From the IMG/VR virus record IMGVR_UViG_3300032327_000953, positions 174,136 through 238,135 of that record: a stretch of 64,000 nt of DNA. One strand, 5' to 3'. Made by a program: the position numbers and the translations under genes. The stretch is from a virus (lineage: Duplodnaviria > Caudoviricetes). A model generated the notes under the pieces. It saw nothing but the letters and a program-made list of their open reading frames with translations, was not told the DNA's origin and did no database searches. Position 1 is the first letter of the stretch, and every line of letters begins with the position of its first letter. Below are positions 48,617 through 57,265 of this stretch, piece after piece.

Positions 48617-49657
48617 ATTATAATTACATACTTTAGAAGCTCATCATATAATACTCATTCAATGTGTGAGCAACAGTACTTTATGGAGTACGTATTAGGT
48701 TGGAGATCGCCTAGTAATCAAAAAGCAGACAAGGGAACTATTGTTCATAAGGTTTTGGAAATCTTGGCCGTTATCAAAAAAGCACAGCAAGATAATCAAG
48801 ATTCTATAAATGATGATATTCTTGGAGATCTTCCAGTAGTTGGATATGATCTGGAAAACATCATAAAAAATGTATACGATTATTATATAGGATTATGCCA
48901 TCACCATAAGTGGGCAGAAAAAGATTTTACAGATTGTCGGAAGTGGGTATATAAAGCTCTAGAATTTAATAATGGGATGTTTGATCCTAGGAATAGAGAT
49001 ATCCTGTGTCCAGAACAAAGGTTTGACATAGCTATCAATAAGAAGTGGGCAGAATATGAGTATGACTATAAAGATCAAAAAATTAAAGGTACTCTTGGCC
49101 TAAAGGGAACTATAGACCTAATAACCAAAGTTGATGATTCAACCATAGAAATTATTGACTGGAAAACAGGGAAAAGATTAGATTGGGCTACTGGACAAGA
49201 AAAGACCCAAGAAAAGCTAGAAAATGATCCACAGTTAAGAATCTATCACTATGCTGTTCAAAAACTATATCCCGATATTCCCCATGTTATCGTTACGATA
49301 TTTTTTATCAACGACGGTGGTCCATTCAGTATAATCTTTGACAAGTCTGATCTGCCAAAAACAGAAGAAATGCTAAAAGATAAATTTGAGATTATTAAGA
49401 AAGCAAGAAAACCAGCATTAAAGAAAAGCTGGATGTGCAGTAAGCTATGTCACTTTGGTAAAACAACTTTTGACAATACTCATATTAATCCATTAGAAGA
49501 ATATAGAGATGGACAGCTTTGTGCCAAAGACTCCAATATGACCAAGTGCGAACAAATAAAGCATGACATAGAGATGAAAGGTATGGATATGGTCATTGAC
49601 GAATACTCCGCCAAGGGGCATAATATAGGAAACTACAAAGCCCCAGGAACCATTTAA
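48617..49657 (+). CDS. PD-(D/E)XK exonuclease (RecB/AddB/Cas4-like), probable non-AUG start
   Basis: RSSSY....CEQQY, GTIVH, EQRF, GTIDLI, IIDWKTG, QLRIY, CSKLC; frame extends upstream of ATG 48662 to ATT 48617 behind SD GAGGTG. Confidence 0.85.
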   Translation: MIITYFRSSSYNTHSMCEQQYFMEYVLGWRSPSNQKADKGTIVHKVLEILAVIKKAQQDNQDSINDDILGDLPVVGYDLENIIKNVYDYYIGLCHHHKWAEKDFTDCRKWVYKALEFNNGMFDPRNRDILCPEQRFDIAINKKWAEYEYDYKDQKIKGTLGLKGTIDLITKVDDSTIEIIDWKTGKRLDWATGQEKTQEKLENDPQLRIYHYAVQKLYPDIPHVIVTIFFINDGGPFSIIFDKSDLPKTEEMLKDKFEIIKKARKPALKKSWMCSKLCHFGKTTFDNTHINPLEEYRDGQLCAKDSNMTKCEQIKHDIEMKGMDMVIDEYSAKGHNIGNYKAPGTI

Positions 49658-49694
49658 TACACACTCATACACATTTTAAGTTTTTCTCCAAATT

Positions 49695-49702
49695 AGTGTA
49701 TA
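49695..49702 (+). promoter_or_regulatory. putative late promoter variant AGTGTATA for the endonuclease gene
   Basis: In the gap before SD AAGGAG / ATG 49724. Confidence 0.5.
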
Positions 49703-49723
49703 TGTATGTATAAGGAGAAACAT

Positions 49724-50443
49724 ATGGGGCGTAAAATCGAAAATGGCAGATTTACTAAATGTTACGATAAAAAGCTAACTAAAAAATTCTTAGAAAAAGA
49801 ATATCCAAAAAAAGGGGCATATGTTCTTTCTAAATCTTTAAATATACATGTTAAGACGATATATAATTATTTAGAATACTATAACATACCTAGAACCAGA
49901 AAAATAAGTAAAACCCTCAAATCTGGACAAATTTTTGGACTTCTAACATTACTTCATCCAGAAGGTAAAAATAAAAGCGACGGTGGAACTAAATGGAAAT
50001 GCCAATGCAGTTGTGGAAATACTACTATAGTACCACAATCTAGATTGAAGACGAATAGAGTAAAGAGTTGTGGTTGTTGGAAAAAAAGAAAAATGAACCA
50101 CAGATGGAAAGGATATTGCGGAATCAGTGGAGCTAGGGTTTCAGAGATAAAAGGCAGAGCAAGAAAACATAATTTTGATTTTGATCTAGATCCTAAATTT
50201 TTATGGAATTTGTATATCGATCAAAATAAGAAATGTGCAATCACGGGTAAGCCCATAGAGATTGACATCGACGGATCACTGGATAGAATAGACAGCAGCA
50301 AGGGCTACGTCAGAGATAATGTCTGGTGGGTCACAAAAAATATTAACAAAATGAAACTAGATTTTTCGCTACCTATATTTATAGATCTATGCGAACAAGT
50401 CGTAGCCAACAAGGAGAAAATAAAGTATGGACGTGAAGCATAA
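49724..50443 (+). mobile_element. free-standing HNH-like putative homing endonuclease
   Basis: HTH-like N-terminus, GQIFGLLT..WKCQCSCG..SCGC, SLDRIDSSKGY..N....N..K; own promoter and SD; wedged between exonuclease and dnaE. Confidence 0.75.
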
Positions 50444-52319
50444 CTATGTGCCTCTACACGTCCATTCTTAGCGATCTCACTACTCGCTATTGGATGGACT
50501 CTCTAAACCAGATCAAATTGCTGAAAGATGTTTAGCTATCGGAGCTAAGTCTTGCGCTATAACAGATCATGGTTCAATTTCAGGTGCTGTTTCATTCTAT
50601 CAGTCAATGAAAAAGAAAAACATCAAGCCTATTCTTGGATGTGAGCTTTATATTTGTGAAGGTTTATCTACCAATCAGAATAAGGAAAATGGCTCCTTAT
50701 CTCATATGTTGGTTCTGGCAAAAAACCAGAAAGGCTGGCAAAATCTCATCCGTTTAGTTTCAACTACCAACGAGCCATCAAGGTTTTATAGAAAGCCTAG
50801 GATCAGTCTAAGTGAGATGGAGAACCTAGATATGAGCGGACTACTCTGTATCACTGGTCATCTTGGTTCCAATCTGGCCGATGCTGTTGGAAATGGTAGT
50901 GATTTGACCAAAGCAGAAAATATGATTGGTCAGTTATCTGGTATATTTGGAAAAGACCATCTATTTTTTGAAGCCCAATTAATGGATAAGGAACATACTC
51001 CAAGTCAGATAGTTTTAACTGATATTATGAGAAATTTATCTGTCAAGCATAAAGTAAAAATGATAGCAACTCCAGACGCTCACTATGCCAAAAAAGAAGA
51101 TGCTATTGATCAAAGAGTTCTTTTGTGCAACACATTGAAAACAACATTTCCAGAAGTTAATAAAAAGATAGTTAATGATCAAGATGTTCCTCTTGGATGT
51201 TTTTTCAAATCAGATAATTTCTATATACTGTCCAACGAAGAAATGATAGAACTTCATACGGAAGAAGAATTAAGGAACACGAATCTTGTAGATGAAATGT
51301 GTGAAGAATATAATATCCTCAAAACTCCACAACTTCCTAGGTTTACAGATAATGAAGACGAATATCTAAGACAGCTTTGTAGAAATGGATGGAGAAAACG
51401 AGGATTTACTCAAGCCTCAGAAGAGGACCAAGCAATTTATGCAGAAAGAATCAAGCAGGAGTTGCAAGTTTTACAAGGAGCTAATCTATCTGGCTACTTC
51501 TTGATTGTTCAAGACATATTGGGTTATATACGATCAAAAGAGTGGTTACCCGGACCCGGACGAGGTTCGGCGGCAGGATGTCTAGTATCCTACTTATTAG
51601 AGATTACTAATATTGATCCTATAAAGTATAATCTTTTGTTTGAGAGATTTTATAACGCTGGTCGAAATAGTGGAGATAGAGTTTCCATGCCAGATATTGA
51701 TATTGACGTACCAATGACAACCAGAGATGACGTTATCTCATATATCAAAAACAAATATGGTGAAAATAAAGTTTCTCAAATGATTACTTTTAATACCATG
51801 AAGGGGCGAGGAGCCTTAAAAGAAGTATTAAGAGTTTATGGGGGATTAACCTATGAGGAAATGAATCAAATTACCAAAAATATTCCTGATGAGGCAAAGA
51901 TTGCAGATGAACTCCAAGAAATGAAAGAAGAAACCGGAGAGTCTTCAATTATACAGTGGTCTTTAGAGAATATGCCAGAAAAGTTCAAAGAGTGGTGCAA
52001 AATAGAAGATGACGGCTCAATAAGTGGACTATTTGCAAAAAGATTTGAACAAGCTATTAGATTAGAAGGAACCAAGTCCAATCAATCAAAACACGCTGCT
52101 GGTATTGCCATTTCGGCCCATAATTTAGATGAGATTTGTCCTATGGTGTATGATTCTAAGACCGGTAATCCTATTGCTGGTATGGAAATGCAAGATCTAG
52201 AATCATTAGGTATTGTTAAGTTTGATATTTTGGGTATCGGTATGTTAGATAAAATTATGTGCATTCAATCTATTTTAAAGGGTAATAATTATGTCACAAC
52301 AACAAACAACATTTGCTAA
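50427..52319 (+). CDS. dnaE: DNA polymerase III alpha, N-terminal part (PHP + palm); in-frame TAG at 50469-50471
   Basis: SD AAGGAG 50411-50416, ATG 50427, YVPLHVHS*RSHYSLLDG, TDHG, GCE, TPDAHY, GRGSAAG, PDIDID, KHAAG, KFDILG. Confidence 0.92.
50460..50499 (+). other. 9-nt insert TAGCGATCT (50469-50477) within a 14-bp hairpin; candidate ribosomal bypass element
   Basis: Matched TCT codons flank TAG CGA; GTCCATTC/GGATGGAC and TAGCGA/TCGCTA stems; 9-nt loop. Confidence 0.8.
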
Positions 52320-52473
52320 TATCGCTAATGATACAGTCTTTATCTATAATGGAATAGACTATAAGAAAACTGCAGAAGTAAGGGTTTCTTGCTGTAGAAA
52401 ACTCAATGCCGTTATGGTCAATAATAATGAAAAAGTTTTTATTCCAGATAATGCAGTTATAACAATCAAGTAA
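52291..52473 (+). CDS. 60-aa protein with CC motif
   Basis: TFANI..DTVF..YKK...CCRKLNA, similar to an internal segment of the next gene. Confidence 0.7.
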   Translation: MSQQQTTFANIANDTVFIYNGIDYKKTAEVRVSCCRKLNAVMVNNNEKVFIPDNAVITIK

Positions 52474-52495
52474 TAAAGTTTATTAGGATTATTTA

Positions 52496-54946
52496 ATGAC
52501 TCATATTTTAGAGATACAGGACGGTGTTCTGTACTCATCTGGAGATAATGACTATGGACAGTTGGGGTTGGGAGATGTTAAAAGGCACGAAACCTCTCAG
52601 ATAGTCACCACCGGAATTGCAACATACGATGCTATTCCATGGATAGAAGCAAAAACCGGACTCAACCATTCTATAGGCGTTAAAAAAGATAAGAGCATAT
52701 GGTTTTGGGGGTCTAATGTGGAAGGCCAAATGGCACTTCCTAGTGAGATATTGTATCTTACGAAACCAAAAAAGATGGATATACCCATTAATGTATCTAA
52801 AGATATAGATATAAATAGTGGATTATATTTTACGATTATAGCTCAAACATCAGAGAAAGCATACGGATTTGGTACTTTTCAAAATTTCAAATCAAATGTA
52901 GTTGAATTATATAGGACTATTGTTCCTATTTATTCTATTGATCCTCTGGGAGATGTATTCTTAACAATAGACACTAGTTCCAAAACAATAATTGGACGCA
53001 TACAAGACGTTGGCTATGTTTATTCCGACTGGTCTGGGGATTTATTTGTTAATGAGTATGTTAAATTTTCTGATTTAAGAACAGGAGATCATTTTACACT
53101 ATATGATCCAAGTAATAGAGAAAGACTAGTATATAAAAAAGTAGATATGTTCCAGCTAGCAGACGGATGCTGTAAAATTAATGCTGCTTGTATGCATAGA
53201 AAGTTTAGAGAATTATTAAGTTCAGTACCAATACAATATCCTACTTTGCCTGGATTTGCTGTGGATCAATTACTTGGTACAGATAGAACCAGACTTGTTC
53301 CAGCAACCGATCAGTATGGAGCAAATTTTGTATTTAATTCAGCTATTGCTGGCATGAATATTGCTGCATCTTCTTTTCCTAATAATGTAGATCCAATAAC
53401 ATTAAAAGGATTGTATTTAGCAACAGGTAAAAATACTCTATTAGATATTCTATTATTTGGGGGATTATATTTTAGTCCAGATTTAACACAAACATTGAAT
53501 ATTAATACTGTAGTTCAAAAAATATATGCTAGAGAGGTTTATAAGAAAGATGCTTTTCCTCCATATTTTTCCGAAGTTGGTGATTATGAGTTATTGCCTG
53601 GGAGAGAATATAATCCAGATCCAATAGCTAGATATAACCAATATGAAAAAGCAGCGCCAATGTATTGGTTTAAATTAGATTCAGATAAGAAACCCATCAA
53701 ATATAAAACCGCCCATAGAGACTTCCTGTATACTGCACCAGTACAAAGAATGAGTACTCTGGAAAAAAATCTATTTGATTTGTATTTCAGCACTTCATCA
53801 GGATTCTTCTATACTGAGCCACCAAAAAATGATGGAGACACCCCCAATATAATAAAACATGAAGTTGATCTTCCTGCAGATGAAAATAATCATATCACAG
53901 TAGAGGATCGTATTTTAGATTATCCGTATCTAATCTCATATGACATAACCACCGGTCAATCATCCTTTGCTCAAAACTTTTTTGACCCATACTTAAGAGT
54001 TAAAATACAAGATCCAACACAAGGGGGGATAGCATGTAATGATCCCGGCACGGGCGCTGGACCAATTACAACAATAAGTTCAGATGATATCAAATGGCTT
54101 TATGAATGCGAAGTACACACAGGAAACAGAACATATCCAACTTACAATATAGGTATTTATGCTCAACAACTCATTGATTATTTTTTAAATCCAGATACTG
54201 ATCCAGAAGAAACTAATAAATTCTTCGGCTTTGCAAAATTTGAATTAGAAGAATTAGTTACCACTATTAAAACTGGTAATCCAGATAAGCCAGGATATGG
54301 GGTAGTCAAAAAATCTTTTGGTTTACTGAGAGATGTACTTAATGTTCAAATCAATAATAAGTTTTATTTTTCTCCCACTACTAATCAACCAATATTTAAA
54401 ATAAGTCAAACAGAAGATTCTGAATCTAGTCAAACAATATCTTTTACAAATGCAATAAGAAATTATACTTTATATGGTACTTATGATGGAGTTCATAAGA
54501 TTAGAATACCATATAAGAAGATATCTTGTTTTACATATTTTTCCAAAACAGCCAAAGTAGAGAATAATAAACTTGTTTACTCATATACTCCAGATAGATC
54601 CACAATAGTTGTGCCAACAGATATTACCAATAGAATTATTGCCACAAATACTAAAATAAGTTATTGGGTACCCAAAAAAGTTGATGAAAAGGGGAATTTT
54701 ATACAATATGCAAATAACTTAATGCAACAAACAGTGAGTGTTGTGGTAACGAAAGTAACATACGACTCTGCAACGAATCTTACAAAAATAACTCTGGACA
54801 AACCGTTCAGTGTTGACTATATTATAGGATGTATCCCATACATAGGACCACCACCGGGATGTGGCCCAATTATCTCTCCAGAAATTTATTACAATAACCT
54901 TTTCGATACTACACTAGCTTTACAGGACACAACGGGATCATTATGA
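52496..54946 (+). CDS. large protein with N-terminal RCC1-like repeats
   Basis: LYSSGDNDYGQLGLG, GLNHSIGV..IWFWGSNVEGQM, SGLYFT..AYGFG. Confidence 0.75.
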   Translation: MTHILEIQDGVLYSSGDNDYGQLGLGDVKRHETSQIVTTGIATYDAIPWIEAKTGLNHSIGVKKDKSIWFWGSNVEGQMALPSEILYLTKPKKMDIPINVSKDIDINSGLYFTIIAQTSEKAYGFGTFQNFKSNVVELYRTIVPIYSIDPLGDVFLTIDTSSKTIIGRIQDVGYVYSDWSGDLFVNEYVKFSDLRTGDHFTLYDPSNRERLVYKKVDMFQLADGCCKINAACMHRKFRELLSSVPIQYPTLPGFAVDQLLGTDRTRLVPATDQYGANFVFNSAIAGMNIAASSFPNNVDPITLKGLYLATGKNTLLDILLFGGLYFSPDLTQTLNINTVVQKIYAREVYKKDAFPPYFSEVGDYELLPGREYNPDPIARYNQYEKAAPMYWFKLDSDKKPIKYKTAHRDFLYTAPVQRMSTLEKNLFDLYFSTSSGFFYTEPPKNDGDTPNIIKHEVDLPADENNHITVEDRILDYPYLISYDITTGQSSFAQNFFDPYLRVKIQDPTQGGIACNDPGTGAGPITTISSDDIKWLYECEVHTGNRTYPTYNIGIYAQQLIDYFLNPDTDPEETNKFFGFAKFELEELVTTIKTGNPDKPGYGVVKKSFGLLRDVLNVQINNKFYFSPTTNQPIFKISQTEDSESSQTISFTNAIRNYTLYGTYDGVHKIRIPYKKISCFTYFSKTAKVENNKLVYSYTPDRSTIVVPTDITNRIIATNTKISYWVPKKVDEKGNFIQYANNLMQQTVSVVVTKVTYDSATNLTKITLDKPFSVDYIIGCIPYIGPPPGCGPIISPEIYYNNLFDTTLALQDTTGSL

Positions 54947-55644
54947 AAAATAAGATATGCGTATTTGACTTTGAAACAGATGGAATCAATACGGATGAAT
55001 GTAGCCCGGTACAGATTGCTGCTATTATCGTGGACCCATACAATTTGTCTATCGTAAAAGATTCTGAATTCAATATTATGGTTAAGCCAGAAAAGCTTGA
55101 ACTAGATAAAGATTATACATATAAGGATTCTGATATTCTGGATTTTCATGCTAAAGTGAGAAGTTCAACCCCAGAAAAAATACTTGAGTCTTGGCAAAAC
55201 GCAATATCTCAACAACAAGCTTGGTCAATGTTCTCCAAATATCTAGAGATCTACCATCTCAACAGATCAAAAAAGAGTATGTTTTCTGCACCAGTAGCAT
55301 CAGGATATAACATACTCAGATTCGATATGAAAATAGTGGAAAGATTTAGTCGTAAATTTGGCTATGTTAATAGTGAAAATGGCACAAGTCTATTTTATCC
55401 AAGAGATACTCTAGATATGATGAATCTGTTATTTTACTGGTTTGAAAGTAATAATGATATGAAGAGTCTAAGTTTAGACAATATCCGCGATTATATGGGA
55501 ATAACCAAAGAGGGCGCTCACGACGCTTTGAAAGATGTCAGAGATTCTGCTGAACTGGTTATCAGATTTCTAAGGTTGCATCGTAATCTTTCCAAAAAAA
55601 TTAAGTTTAAGGACTCTTTTTCGTCAGATAGCACACTAGTTTAA
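54943..55644 (+). CDS. dnaQ: DEDDh 3'-5' exonuclease (epsilon-like)
   Basis: FDFETDG, GYNILRFD, HDALKDV. Confidence 0.88.
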   Translation: MKNKICVFDFETDGINTDECSPVQIAAIIVDPYNLSIVKDSEFNIMVKPEKLELDKDYTYKDSDILDFHAKVRSSTPEKILESWQNAISQQQAWSMFSKYLEIYHLNRSKKSMFSAPVASGYNILRFDMKIVERFSRKFGYVNSENGTSLFYPRDTLDMMNLLFYWFESNNDMKSLSLDNIRDYMGITKEGAHDALKDVRDSAELVIRFLRLHRNLSKKIKFKDSFSSDSTLV

Positions 55645-55645
55645 T

Positions 55646-57265
55646 ATGACAAAATATTTAAAGTTTTCTTGCGGATGTAAATTTTTGGTTGATGATATCG
55701 ATCATTTGGATTTCGATATTAATACCATTCCTTTGGATTGTCAAAAAACATGGGATCTTATTGCAGATGGAAATACTAAGGGATGTTTTCAGCTTGAATC
55801 AAGATTGGGTCAAGCTATGGCTAAAAAACTTAAGCCAGAAAATATCGAACAATTAGCTGGTCTAATTAGTATTATGCGTCCCGGTTGCTTAGAAGCGGTT
55901 AGAGAAGGAAAAACTGTTAGTAATCACTTTATTGATAGGAAAAATGGTAATGAAAGTATAGATTATTATCATCCAGCACTTAAAGGGATTTTGGAATCTA
56001 CTTATGGTGAGATGGTTTATCAAGAACAAAGTATGCAAATAGCCCAAGAATTGGCGGGCTTTGATTTGCAAGAAGCGGACATGTTAAGAAAAGCTATTGG
56101 TAAAAAGAAGCCAGAAGAGATGGCCAAATTAAAGAAGGTATTTATTAATGGATGTATAGGTAAGAAAATAGTCTCAGAGCCAGAAGCAGAAGAAATTTTC
56201 GGCTGGATTGAAAAGTCTCAGAGATATTCATTTAATAAATCACATGCTGTTAGTTATGCGATTAATGGATACTTATCGGCATATGCTAAAGCTCATTTTC
56301 CAAAGATATTTTTTGTATCATATCTAAGATTCGCAAAAGATAAAATAGATCCTCAGCAAGAAATCAAAGAGCTTGTTAATAATGCAAGCACTATGGGTAT
56401 ACAGGTATTATTACCAAAATTCAAGTTGATGAATAAAGAATTCATATCGATAGGAGATAATATCTATTTCGGCTTAACTAATATCAAGGGTGTCGGAGAA
56501 TCTGTATTTGACAATCTATTAGAACAATATAAAAATACTGGCATAGATGATAATTCAAGCATTATAACAATTTTTTGCAGACTATTGTGCAATATTAATA
56601 GTGCTGCTGCTAAGGCTATGATATCAGCCGGATGTTTTGATGACTATAAGACACCAAGAACAGAACTACTATTATATTTAGAATTGCTCAATAAATTAAC
56701 CAAAAAAGAATCAGAACAAATCTGCATAAATAACCTTGATAAGAATAATAAAAAGTTCAGAGATGTTTTTGTTCAGTTATTAGATTGTAAGGTTACTAAA
56801 AAGAGAAAAATATTAATTCAAGAATTTATAGACACAATAGATAAGCCTCCATATTCGCTAAAAGACAATATGCAATGGATAGCAGAGACAGAAGGATCTC
56901 TATTAGGTCTACCGATCACATGCACCAAAACGGATTGTTATTCTCAAAATTATGAAGCAAATATTATAACTTGCAAAGAATTTAAAGATATAATGACACA
57001 AAATAAGAAAGTTTCGGTCATGGGTGAAATTAGTCGTCTTAGTGTTATCAGAACAAAACAAGGAAAAAACAAAGGAGCAAATATGGCTTTTTTGGAAATC
57101 TTTGATAGCTCTGGCACAATAGATTCGGTAGTGCTATTTCCAGAACAGTATACTAATTTTAGTGACGTTCTTAAGGAAAACGAAGTTTTAGTTTTTGTGG
57201 GTTCTAAATCAAAAAAATCTGACAATAGCCTGATTGTAGAAAAATGTTTTATTCCAGAGTCTTGA
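55646..57265 (+). CDS. dnaE: DNA polymerase III alpha, C-terminal part (fingers, HhH, OB)
   Basis: TKGCFQLES, RPG, YQEQ, AGF..ADMLRKA.GKK, YSFNKSHA, FGLTNIKGVG, MAFLEIFD. Confidence 0.92.
   Translation: MTKYLKFSCGCKFLVDDIDHLDFDINTIPLDCQKTWDLIADGNTKGCFQLESRLGQAMAKKLKPENIEQLAGLISIMRPGCLEAVREGKTVSNHFIDRKNGNESIDYYHPALKGILESTYGEMVYQEQSMQIAQELAGFDLQEADMLRKAIGKKKPEEMAKLKKVFINGCIGKKIVSEPEAEEIFGWIEKSQRYSFNKSHAVSYAINGYLSAYAKAHFPKIFFVSYLRFAKDKIDPQQEIKELVNNASTMGIQVLLPKFKLMNKEFISIGDNIYFGLTNIKGVGESVFDNLLEQYKNTGIDDNSSIITIFCRLLCNINSAAAKAMISAGCFDDYKTPRTELLLYLELLNKLTKKESEQICINNLDKNNKKFRDVFVQLLDCKVTKKRKILIQEFIDTIDKPPYSLKDNMQWIAETEGSLLGLPITCTKTDCYSQNYEANIITCKEFKDIMTQNKKVSVMGEISRLSVIRTKQGKNKGANMAFLEIFDSSGTIDSVVLFPEQYTNFSDVLKENEVLVFVGSKSKKSDNSLIVEKCFIPES

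Follow-up and report, generated by a model that had tools for sequence, protein, structure and literature searches.

The window analysed here, the final 64 kb of a 238,135-bp jumbo-phage record in IMG/VR (IMGVR_UViG_3300032327_000953), contains a dnaE gene whose first PHP motif is interrupted by a 9-nucleotide (nt) insert beginning with a stop codon. Positions 49658..50499 of this window are probably a mobile cassette, in which the gene of an HNH-fold homing endonuclease is fused to a replacement 5' end of dnaE equipped with a programmed stop-hop. To judge from the sequence, ribosomes most likely hop over the 9-nt insert and continue into the remainder of dnaE.

The interrupted dnaE locus

The features of the interrupted locus are as follows, in window positions.

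49724..50443, + strand: free-standing gene for a predicted HNH-fold nuclease of 239 amino acids (aa) (PHROG 3322/374, endonuclease or HNH)
50411..50416, + strand: Shine-Dalgarno (SD) sequence of dnaE, AAGGAG, inside the 3' end of the nuclease gene
50427..50468, + strand: dnaE open reading frame (ORF) 1, 14 codons, MDVKHNYVPLHVHS; the last codon, TCT at 50466-50468, is the proposed take-off codon
50469..50477, + strand: 9-nt insert, made up of TAG (50469-71), CGA (50472-74) and the proposed landing codon TCT (50475-77)
50478..52319, + strand: dnaE ORF2, the remainder of the N-half (PHP and polymerase palm), from CAC 50478 (Pfam PHP, DNA_pol3_alpha)

The dnaE frame reads MDVKHNYVPLHVHS-TAG-RSH-YSLLDG (in DNA, CAT TCT / TAG CGA TCT / CAC TAC), with the stop flanked by two identical Ser codons, TCT. 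Removal of the 9 nt (TAGCGATCT) yields HVHSHYSLLDG, the motif seen in P0005 to P0007 and other uninterrupted relatives. The dnaE ATG at 50427 overlaps the end of the nuclease gene (stop TAA 50441-50443) by 17 nt, and TAG 50469 lies 25 nt beyond the nuclease stop. The initial annotation had drawn attention to this overlap, to the SD and ATG within the nuclease end and to the position of the insert in the PHP motif, and all of these are present in the sequence. Gene callers give such loci truncated or out-of-frame DnaE N-termini (MDGLSKP.., MSHYSLLDG.. and MSIPKWSHYSLLDG..).

The insert across relatives

A protein-based scan of viral contigs gave 80 loci encoding the N-terminal half of DnaE (DnaE-N), 21 of which have extra bases exactly at the insert site. 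Further alleles came from a DNA pattern scan anchored on the stop codon and from look-ups by protein. After de-duplication, 54 alleles with an insert of 8, 9, 10 or 11 nt stand against 47 insert-less ones, plus a single allele with 12 nt (locus L174). Assembly error is ruled out by the recurrence of the insert in many independent metagenome assemblies. A stop (TAG, TAA or TGA) directly follows a Ser codon of the form TCY in all 42 unique insert alleles. The same rule holds for all 24 alleles that were found without the stop-anchored pattern (21 from the protein scan and three from look-ups), and in these removal of the insert restores HVHS[H/M][Y/F]SLLDG. The triplet on which the ribosome would land is TCT, TCA or TCC in 26 of 34 unique alleles, and its second base, C, is invariant.

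Insert lengths that are not multiples of three are common (8, 10 and 11 nt), which excludes readthrough as the general answer. Conventional recoding would then have to be specific to each allele, with readthrough for inserts of 9 or 12 nt and a -1 or +1 frameshift for the others, and would place three to four extra residues in the PHP motif. It is true that the insert of the window is in frame, that several alleles with 8 or 11 nt have no stop in the -1 frame over the length of the insert, and that a sister lineage of the nuclease seems to use a +1 shift at UUU_N. Against this, a single architecture is conserved for all four or five lengths, the +1 frame of L021 meets a TGA inside the insert, and a slippery heptamer is absent. 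The extra residues would moreover fall between metal ligands, although the spacing of the motif is invariant in every uninterrupted relative. Reassignment or suppression of TAG was also rejected: TAG is a normal stop, found at the end of 4 of the 75 long plus-strand ORFs, and no suppressor tRNA is present among the 10 tRNAs of the genome. Allele-specific recoding of the conventional kind is thus considered very unlikely. The tRNA genes form a cluster outside the window (genome 124340-133031; Arg, Thr, Gln, Asn, Ser-ACU, Ile, Trp, Glu, Lys and Gly), and none of these ten reads UCN or a stop codon.

Selection on both flanks of the insert

Both flanks of the insert are, on the evidence of their codons, translated and under protein-level selection. 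ORF1 keeps Y-x-P-L-H-V-H-S in the 42 unique alleles, where the codons for Tyr, Pro, Leu (five different codons) and the first His show synonymous changes only, while residues 2-6 vary freely. HVHS is found at 93 of 93 insert-bearing loci, even where insert-less members of the clade have HCHS, HAHS or HTHS. After the insert, the codons for H/M-Y/F-S-L keep the frame of the remaining gene and contain zero indels, and the two residues following the landing site mostly match those of the host clade (MF, MY or HY). The constancy of HVHS, together with the clade-like residues downstream, suggests that the upstream part travels with the cassette whereas the downstream part is often that of the recipient. 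Identity among the insert-bearing alleles goes down to 62%, and ORF2 (609 aa) is intact in every one of them.

These observations bear on the possibility that the ribosome terminates at the stop and then re-initiates, at the TTG of LDG or, in Met-type alleles, at an ATG. A 14-aa peptide would be released and the resulting DnaE-N would lack the first H-x-H of the PHP motif; stem-loops around the stop would tune the coupling, and the insert would be a tolerated scar. In the window a TTG follows the stop at a distance of 21 nt. In some alleles the landing triplet is immediately followed by an ATG, 3-4 nt upstream of which lies a stretch rich in purines, and gene callers choose such starts. However, several alleles, including L019 and L084, have CTG in place of TTG and no ATG. 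The codons between the stop and the TTG remain in frame without a single indel, and the loop positions change only synonymously, while the Ser-like landing triplet would be left without a role. Purifying selection on Y-x-P-L-H-V-H-S in ORF1 is sensible only if this peptide is joined to the rest of the domain, and the H-x-H is kept in all 43 unique insert-less alleles of the clade. Re-initiation, the main rival of the hop, therefore appears unlikely.

It is extremely improbable that the insert is excised or edited at the RNA level before translation, or that the interrupted gene is dead. We know of no bacterial or phage mechanism able to remove 8-12 nt from an mRNA. A dead gene is hard to reconcile with an ORF2 that stays intact despite its divergence, with the nature of DnaE-N as half of a replicative polymerase, and with the persistence of the cassette in many lineages after loss of the nuclease.

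RNA structures around the proposed take-off site

The following paired elements surround the take-off codon.

50427..50435, + strand: helix 1, 5' arm AUGGACGUG (start codon plus 6 nt), pairing with 50457-50465
50457..50465, + strand: helix 1, 3' arm CACGUCCAU, directly 5' of the take-off codon
50460..50467, + strand: lower stem, 5' arm GUCCAUUC, including the first two bases of the take-off codon, pairing with 50492-50499
50469-50474, + strand: upper stem, 5' arm UAGCGA, from the stop codon onward, pairing with UCGCUA
50484..50489, + strand: upper stem, 3' arm UCGCUA, in the Ser-Leu codons of YSLLDG
50492..50499, + strand: lower stem, 3' arm GGAUGGAC, within Leu-Asp-Gly-Leu codons

Helix 1 is perfect in the window, AUGGACGUG being the exact reverse complement of CACGUCCAU. 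It comprises 8-9 base pairs (bp) in 42 of 42 cassette alleles, with G-C/A-U covariation and G.U wobbles, compared with 0-5 bp at the same position in insert-less alleles. Alleles with AUGGACAUG carry the compensating CAUGUCCAU, and pairing is kept via G.U where the second codon is GGC or GAU. RNAalifold recovers this helix unaided, with zero broken pairs in 41 sequences and 12 double compensatory changes.

In all 42 alleles the upper stem runs from the first or second base of the stop codon through to the third position of the Leu codon in YSLLDG. The MAFFT alignment of the inserts mixes two pairing registers; this stem was counted with a register-aware script and by pair-counting. Its six pairs are canonical in 30-34 of 34 alleles, and two positions show three Watson-Crick types with G.U intermediates. 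The third base of the Ser codon and its partner form A-U, G-C, U-A or G.U. That of the Leu codon is found in A-U, U-A or C-G, and the same pair sets the stop as UAG, UAA or UGA; that of the Tyr codon forms U-A or C-G. When the 5' arms were shuffled among alleles, the observed pairing was reached in 0 of 2000 trials. By pair-counting over the upper stem and helix 1 together, 95.2% of cells are paired, against 32-56% with slid partners, and 0 of 500 shuffles were as high.

Lower and upper stem form a two-tier stem-loop of about 40 nt in 10 of 10 alleles folded (minimum free energy -13.5 to -21.8 kcal/mol, z -3.6 to -6.9). The lower-stem sequence UGGAUGGA occurs in 18 of 18 cassette alleles free of pattern bias, versus 9 of 46 insert-less ones. 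Within these elements GUCCAU can pair either upstream, in helix 1, or downstream, in the lower stem, the two pairings being mutually exclusive. The many G.U pairs, which are A-C mismatches on the other strand, indicate an mRNA structure rather than a DNA palindrome. Purine-rich runs resembling GGUGA or GUGGG are also found 0-3 nt before the landing triplet in many, though not all, alleles.

Proposed mechanism

Translation of the window's dnaE would begin at AUG 50427 and proceed through 14 codons, so that peptidyl-tRNA-Ser occupies UCU 50466 while the A site holds UAG. The upper stem, whose first bases are those of the stop codon, may refold at the A site and hinder access of the release factor. 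The tRNA would then unpair, the mRNA would slide by 9 nt and the tRNA would re-pair at UCU 50475, decoding resuming at CAC. The expected outcome is one DnaE-N chain with an intact PHP motif, HVHSHYSLLDG, in which the predicted junction peptide, ..PLHVHSHYSLLDG.. / ..YVPLHVHSHYSLLDGLSK.., contains no extra residues. Once outside the ribosome, the 9 nt on the 5' side of the take-off codon would pair with the start-codon region as helix 1 and may give the slide its direction, a role modelled on the proposal for the 5' stem-loop of T4 gene 60. At the DNA level, the nuclease would cut cassette-free dnaE in or near the PHP motif, and repair would copy the cassette in; the insert would split the nuclease target and so render carriers immune.

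The nuclease

The nuclease ORF spans 49706..50443 (245 aa). Its true start is probably ATG 49724, preceded by the SD AAGGAG at 49712-49717, because homologues begin at MGR... An AlphaFold2 model (predicted local distance difference test score 86) has an N-terminal helix-turn-helix (HTH), a small beta domain that includes the Cys cluster, and a domain at the C-terminus (residues 133-233). The fold of this last domain matches those of PacI (Z 8.3), the Gme HNH nickase (6.3), the HNH domain of Cas9 (about 6) and T4 endonuclease VII (4.4); on this model the nuclease is of the beta-beta-alpha-Me (HNH) fold. Its motifs are a Cys-rich zinc finger (CxCxC..CGC) and, in the C-terminal HNH/beta-beta-alpha-Me domain, S-L-D-R-I-D..Y..N..N, which is invariant. 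Sequence searches with the nuclease domain gave zero matches to Pfam nuclease models (the HTH alone was found) and zero to PDB sequences, and NCBI-style naming names nothing. The uncharacterised family to which it belongs is large (4869 proteins at E <= 1e-5); its matches in cultured phages, at 25-45% identity, are labelled only endonuclease, HNH endonuclease or hypothetical protein.

Sequence identity is 57-68% for the seven intact orthologues. Among 37 diverse family members Arg194 (of SLDRID), Tyr201, Asp193/196, Asn205/214 and the cysteines are invariant. The presence of Arg in SLDRID in place of His, pointed out in the initial annotation as a reason for caution, is real; its invariance across the family marks it as a family trait and not as a lesion of decay. 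PacI, which also lacks the general-base His, uses a Tyr instead (PMC4081073). The missing His is for this reason no evidence of inactivity, although catalysis is here only predicted, and by analogy the family may use a Tyr as PacI does. Of the structural matches PacI is the closest (Z 8.3 over 97 residues), and it shares the absence of a general-base His. It differs, however, in being a restriction enzyme of only about 19% sequence identity, the comparison being one of overall folds, and the present family adds the HTH and Cys-rich zinc finger and matches no Pfam nuclease model.

A scan for relatives with the single protein returned too few loci, while a profile scan found 79 distant members of the family, at 31-45% identity, and of these a single one adjoins dnaE. 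The wider family therefore has other targets. The genome itself encodes a shorter paralogue (177 aa, SASLDRIDNTKGY) outside the window, at L173 (genome 157333-160641), where it and an adjacent gene for a 114-aa endonuclease VII-like protein immediately precede a gene for an ATP-dependent DNA ligase. Family members or fragments also lie between the dNMP (deoxynucleoside monophosphate) kinase and Cas4-like genes of four relatives (L019:1464-1796, L053:1456-1791, L005:1674-1904 and L072:1764-1904), and this gap is a second insertion site of the family in the replication module. The insert-less locus L047 has, at 2372-2956, an ORF of 194 aa separating the Cas4-like gene from dnaE; by eye it resembles a methyltransferase, and it is not of this nuclease family.

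Linkage and mobility of nuclease and insert

Nine of the 54 insert alleles have an intact nuclease gene (57-89% identity to that of the window) and 4 retain 3' remnants of 27-76 codons, while 41 have only a spacer of 77-173 nt. None of the 47 insert-less alleles of the clade has the gene between the Cas4-like gene and dnaE. Even after loss of the nuclease, all insert alleles keep the SD and start, AAGGAGA..AUGG[AG][CU].., which correspond to the last ~20 nt of the nuclease gene.

Relatives of the window illustrate this range. L166, its sister (97% DnaE aa identity), has neither nuclease gene nor insert; L167 (87%) has a nuclease gene cut to its last 63 codons and an insert identical to that of the window; and L170 (83%) has both nuclease gene and insert. 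Comparison of the window with L170 gives nucleotide identities of ~0.75 for the Cas4-like gene and ~0.85 for the nuclease gene; the value reaches 0.98-1.0 over the last 100 nt before LDG and then falls to ~0.70. This step right after the stem-loop places the 3' edge of the cassette directly behind it.

Insert-bearing alleles are polyphyletic on the DnaE tree. On the DnaE-N tree the insert state must have changed 16 times or more, with a minimum of 11 changes on well-supported branches, and forcing the 35 insert rows to be monophyletic is 1450 log-likelihood units worse (approximately unbiased test, p 5e-5).

Other dnaE-linked nuclease homologues

Nine more nuclease homologues were obtained by protein look-up. 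The DNA was read for eight of them, and all eight lie directly upstream of dnaE. Hop inserts are present in three of these: 12 nt in L174, 10 nt in L175 and 9 nt with a TGA stop in L260. Three further loci (L176:3226-3300, L258:2220-2290 and L259:2214-2290), from independent assemblies, carry instead one extra base right after CAC-TTT in the PHP motif (HSHF/N/SLLDG, with N the extra base), two codons beyond the hop site. As read from their sequences, these would need a +1 frameshift at UUU_C or UUU_U to give HSHFSLLDG. The nuclease protein of L259, P0186, is found on 13 contigs, and a DNA pattern for the +1 class returned only unrelated sequence from the viral contigs. In the nuclease tree, a well-supported clade A comprises 10 members, all with hop inserts, and the other clade contains one hop, three +1 and two uninterrupted cases. 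So the link of this nuclease lineage to the 5' end of dnaE predates the hop insert, and the same motif has been interrupted in at least two forms.

The initial annotation had proposed that nuclease and insert form one mobile cassette and should occur together across relatives. Polyphyly, a sharp 3' boundary, the series of decaying nuclease genes and features at the site that are typical of programmed bypassing favour the first part, while strict co-occurrence fails on both sides, the insert being often without the nuclease and two nucleases (48-49% identity) standing before uninterrupted dnaE. The insert is without the nuclease in most alleles because the nuclease gene decays, as has been reported for mobA. 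The insert is thus one solution within the nuclease lineage and not its obligatory partner.

It appears an even call whether homing endonucleases directed at the first PHP motif of dnaE have repeatedly left 'saviour' indels that are repaired by recoding, in one nuclease lineage through a natural, efficient 8-12-nt stop-hop, with GUCCAU switching between the start-codon region and GGAUGGAC, and in a sister lineage through a +1 shift at UUU_N.

Points against a stop-hop cassette

A number of observations weigh against the cassette and the stop-hop as set out above. That a single chain is made, and with what yield, is something we infer. The nascent chain at take-off is only 13-14 residues long. 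Take-off and landing codons are 5-9 nt apart, which leaves no room for an SD-like element 5-7 nt before landing. The landing triplet is ACT, GCT or GCC in 8 of 34 alleles and then matches the Ser anticodon at two of three positions; in these triplets the first base is used in the stem. The lower stem is backed by conservation without covariation. The nuclease lacks the canonical general-base His of H-N-H. In phylogenetically independent pairs, the association of nuclease and insert is 4-5 versus 0 (p ~0.125), which is non-significant with so few pairs. Finally, the two nucleases of 48-49% identity mentioned above, at L177:3202-3270 and L178:3208-3270, precede intact motifs (HCHSHYSLLDG and HNHSTFSLLDA), and immunity therefore does not always need an insert.

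Genome setting

The phage record has direct terminal repeats and a GC content of 33%. A close cultured relative was not found; the best DnaE identity among GenBank phages is 34%, and there is no DNA match. The replication module comprises, in order, genes for a DnaB-like helicase, a primase, a dNMP kinase, the Cas4-like PD-(D/E)XK nuclease, the 245-aa nuclease ORF, the dnaE N-half, a 60-aa ORF, an 816-aa RCC1-like ORF, an RNase T-like exonuclease and the dnaE C-half. Two of these genes flank the locus described above.

48662..49657, + strand: Cas4-like PD-(D/E)XK nuclease gene, upstream flank (Pfam PDDEXK_1, E 7e-17)
55646..57265, + strand: dnaE C-half (fingers, HhH and OB domains), a separate gene 3.3 kb downstream (Pfam DNA_pol3_finger, HHH_6, tRNA_anti-codon)

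In cassette-free relatives (L166 and other insert-less loci) the stop codon of the Cas4-like gene overlaps the dnaE ATG. The division of dnaE into N- and C-halves with three ORFs between them (50427-57265) is shared by L167 and L170; this split is clade-wide and independent of the cassette.

The nuclease gene had also been credited with a promoter of its own. This could not be upheld, as a scan for sigma-70 sites returned 7 against 5.1 expected, none of them directly before the gene. A sigma-70-like element (TTGACA, 16 nt, TAGAAT; 11 of 12 positions) is present at 50262-50289, in the 3' part of the nuclease gene and ~140 nt before the dnaE ATG. In L167 what remains of the nuclease gene starts exactly at that TTGACA, which hints that such remnants are possibly retained as a dnaE promoter. 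TTGACA, 16-17 nt and TACAAT can be seen by eye in the spacer between the Cas4-like gene and dnaE of three loci that have lost the nuclease gene (L019:2840-2900, L026 and L053).

Comparison with known systems

To our knowledge, published cases of programmed bypassing in phages are confined to T4 gene 60 and its homologues. The T4 gene 60/mobA cassette was reportedly described by Bonocora in 2011, as cited by Manning and Atkins. MobA and the gene 60 bypass spread together, and the bypass outlives the nuclease gene and blocks nicking by MobA (bioRxiv 10.1101/2022.08.31.505936); the same authors term the gene 60 cassette 'unique' (bioRxiv 10.1101/2022.08.31.505936). On the sequence comparisons made here, the dnaE cassette would most likely be a second, independent natural counterpart.

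The parallels between the two are numerous. Each has a free-standing nuclease gene of the HNH type just upstream of an insert in a conserved, replication-related motif. [quoted passage not shown] In gene 60 the landing codon matches the take-off codon; here it is a Ser codon of the form TCN, like that of take-off, in 26 of 34 unique alleles. Both are patchily distributed, the nuclease gene being progressively lost while the bypass is kept. Despite this, there is no sequence homology between them, and the target is dnaE here but the gene for the large subunit of topoisomerase II in T4. The skipped stretch is 8-12 nt rather than 20-50 nt, the landing codon lies within the loop of the take-off stem-loop, the nascent chain has only 13-14 aa, and the SD-like element 5-7 nt before landing is absent. 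Furthermore, the nuclease gene of the dnaE cassette does not split its own carrier gene, and the start codon is part of its 5' helix, which forms in competition with the lower stem.

A review from 2016 knew of no natural in-frame stop-hop, short stop-hops being limited to synthetic constructs and of low efficiency. The UCU-UAG-CGA-UCU of the window resembles the synthetic 9-nt stop-hop in its 9-nt step over a stop, after which the same tRNA would re-pair. The site described here is, by contrast, natural, widespread, independent of frame (8-12 nt) and flanked by conserved RNA structure. The mitochondrial 'byp' elements of Magnusiomyces capitatus are likewise short mobile inserts in essential genes that are neutralised by translational bypassing, but these yeast elements are GC-cluster-like and 27-55 nt long, they are followed up by a sense codon that is unreadable and not by a stop at the take-off site, and no nuclease gene is linked to them.

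Significance

The dnaE cassettes provide a family that is not homologous to gene 60, with dozens of natural alleles, graded gaps of 8-12 nt and compact, covarying RNA signals. They would offer a minimal and easily cloned system for the study of ribosome take-off, slide and landing, and would, if correctly read, be the first natural stop-hops. Annotation pipelines give truncated or false N-termini to dnaE, a core replication gene, in many aquatic jumbo phages. The cassettes would also show that the pairing of a homing nuclease with a translationally repaired disruption of its target has evolved more than once. Should 'saviour' indels prove to be a recurrent outcome of homing at this motif, translational recoding would be a general route to self-immunity for homing elements that have neither intron nor intein.

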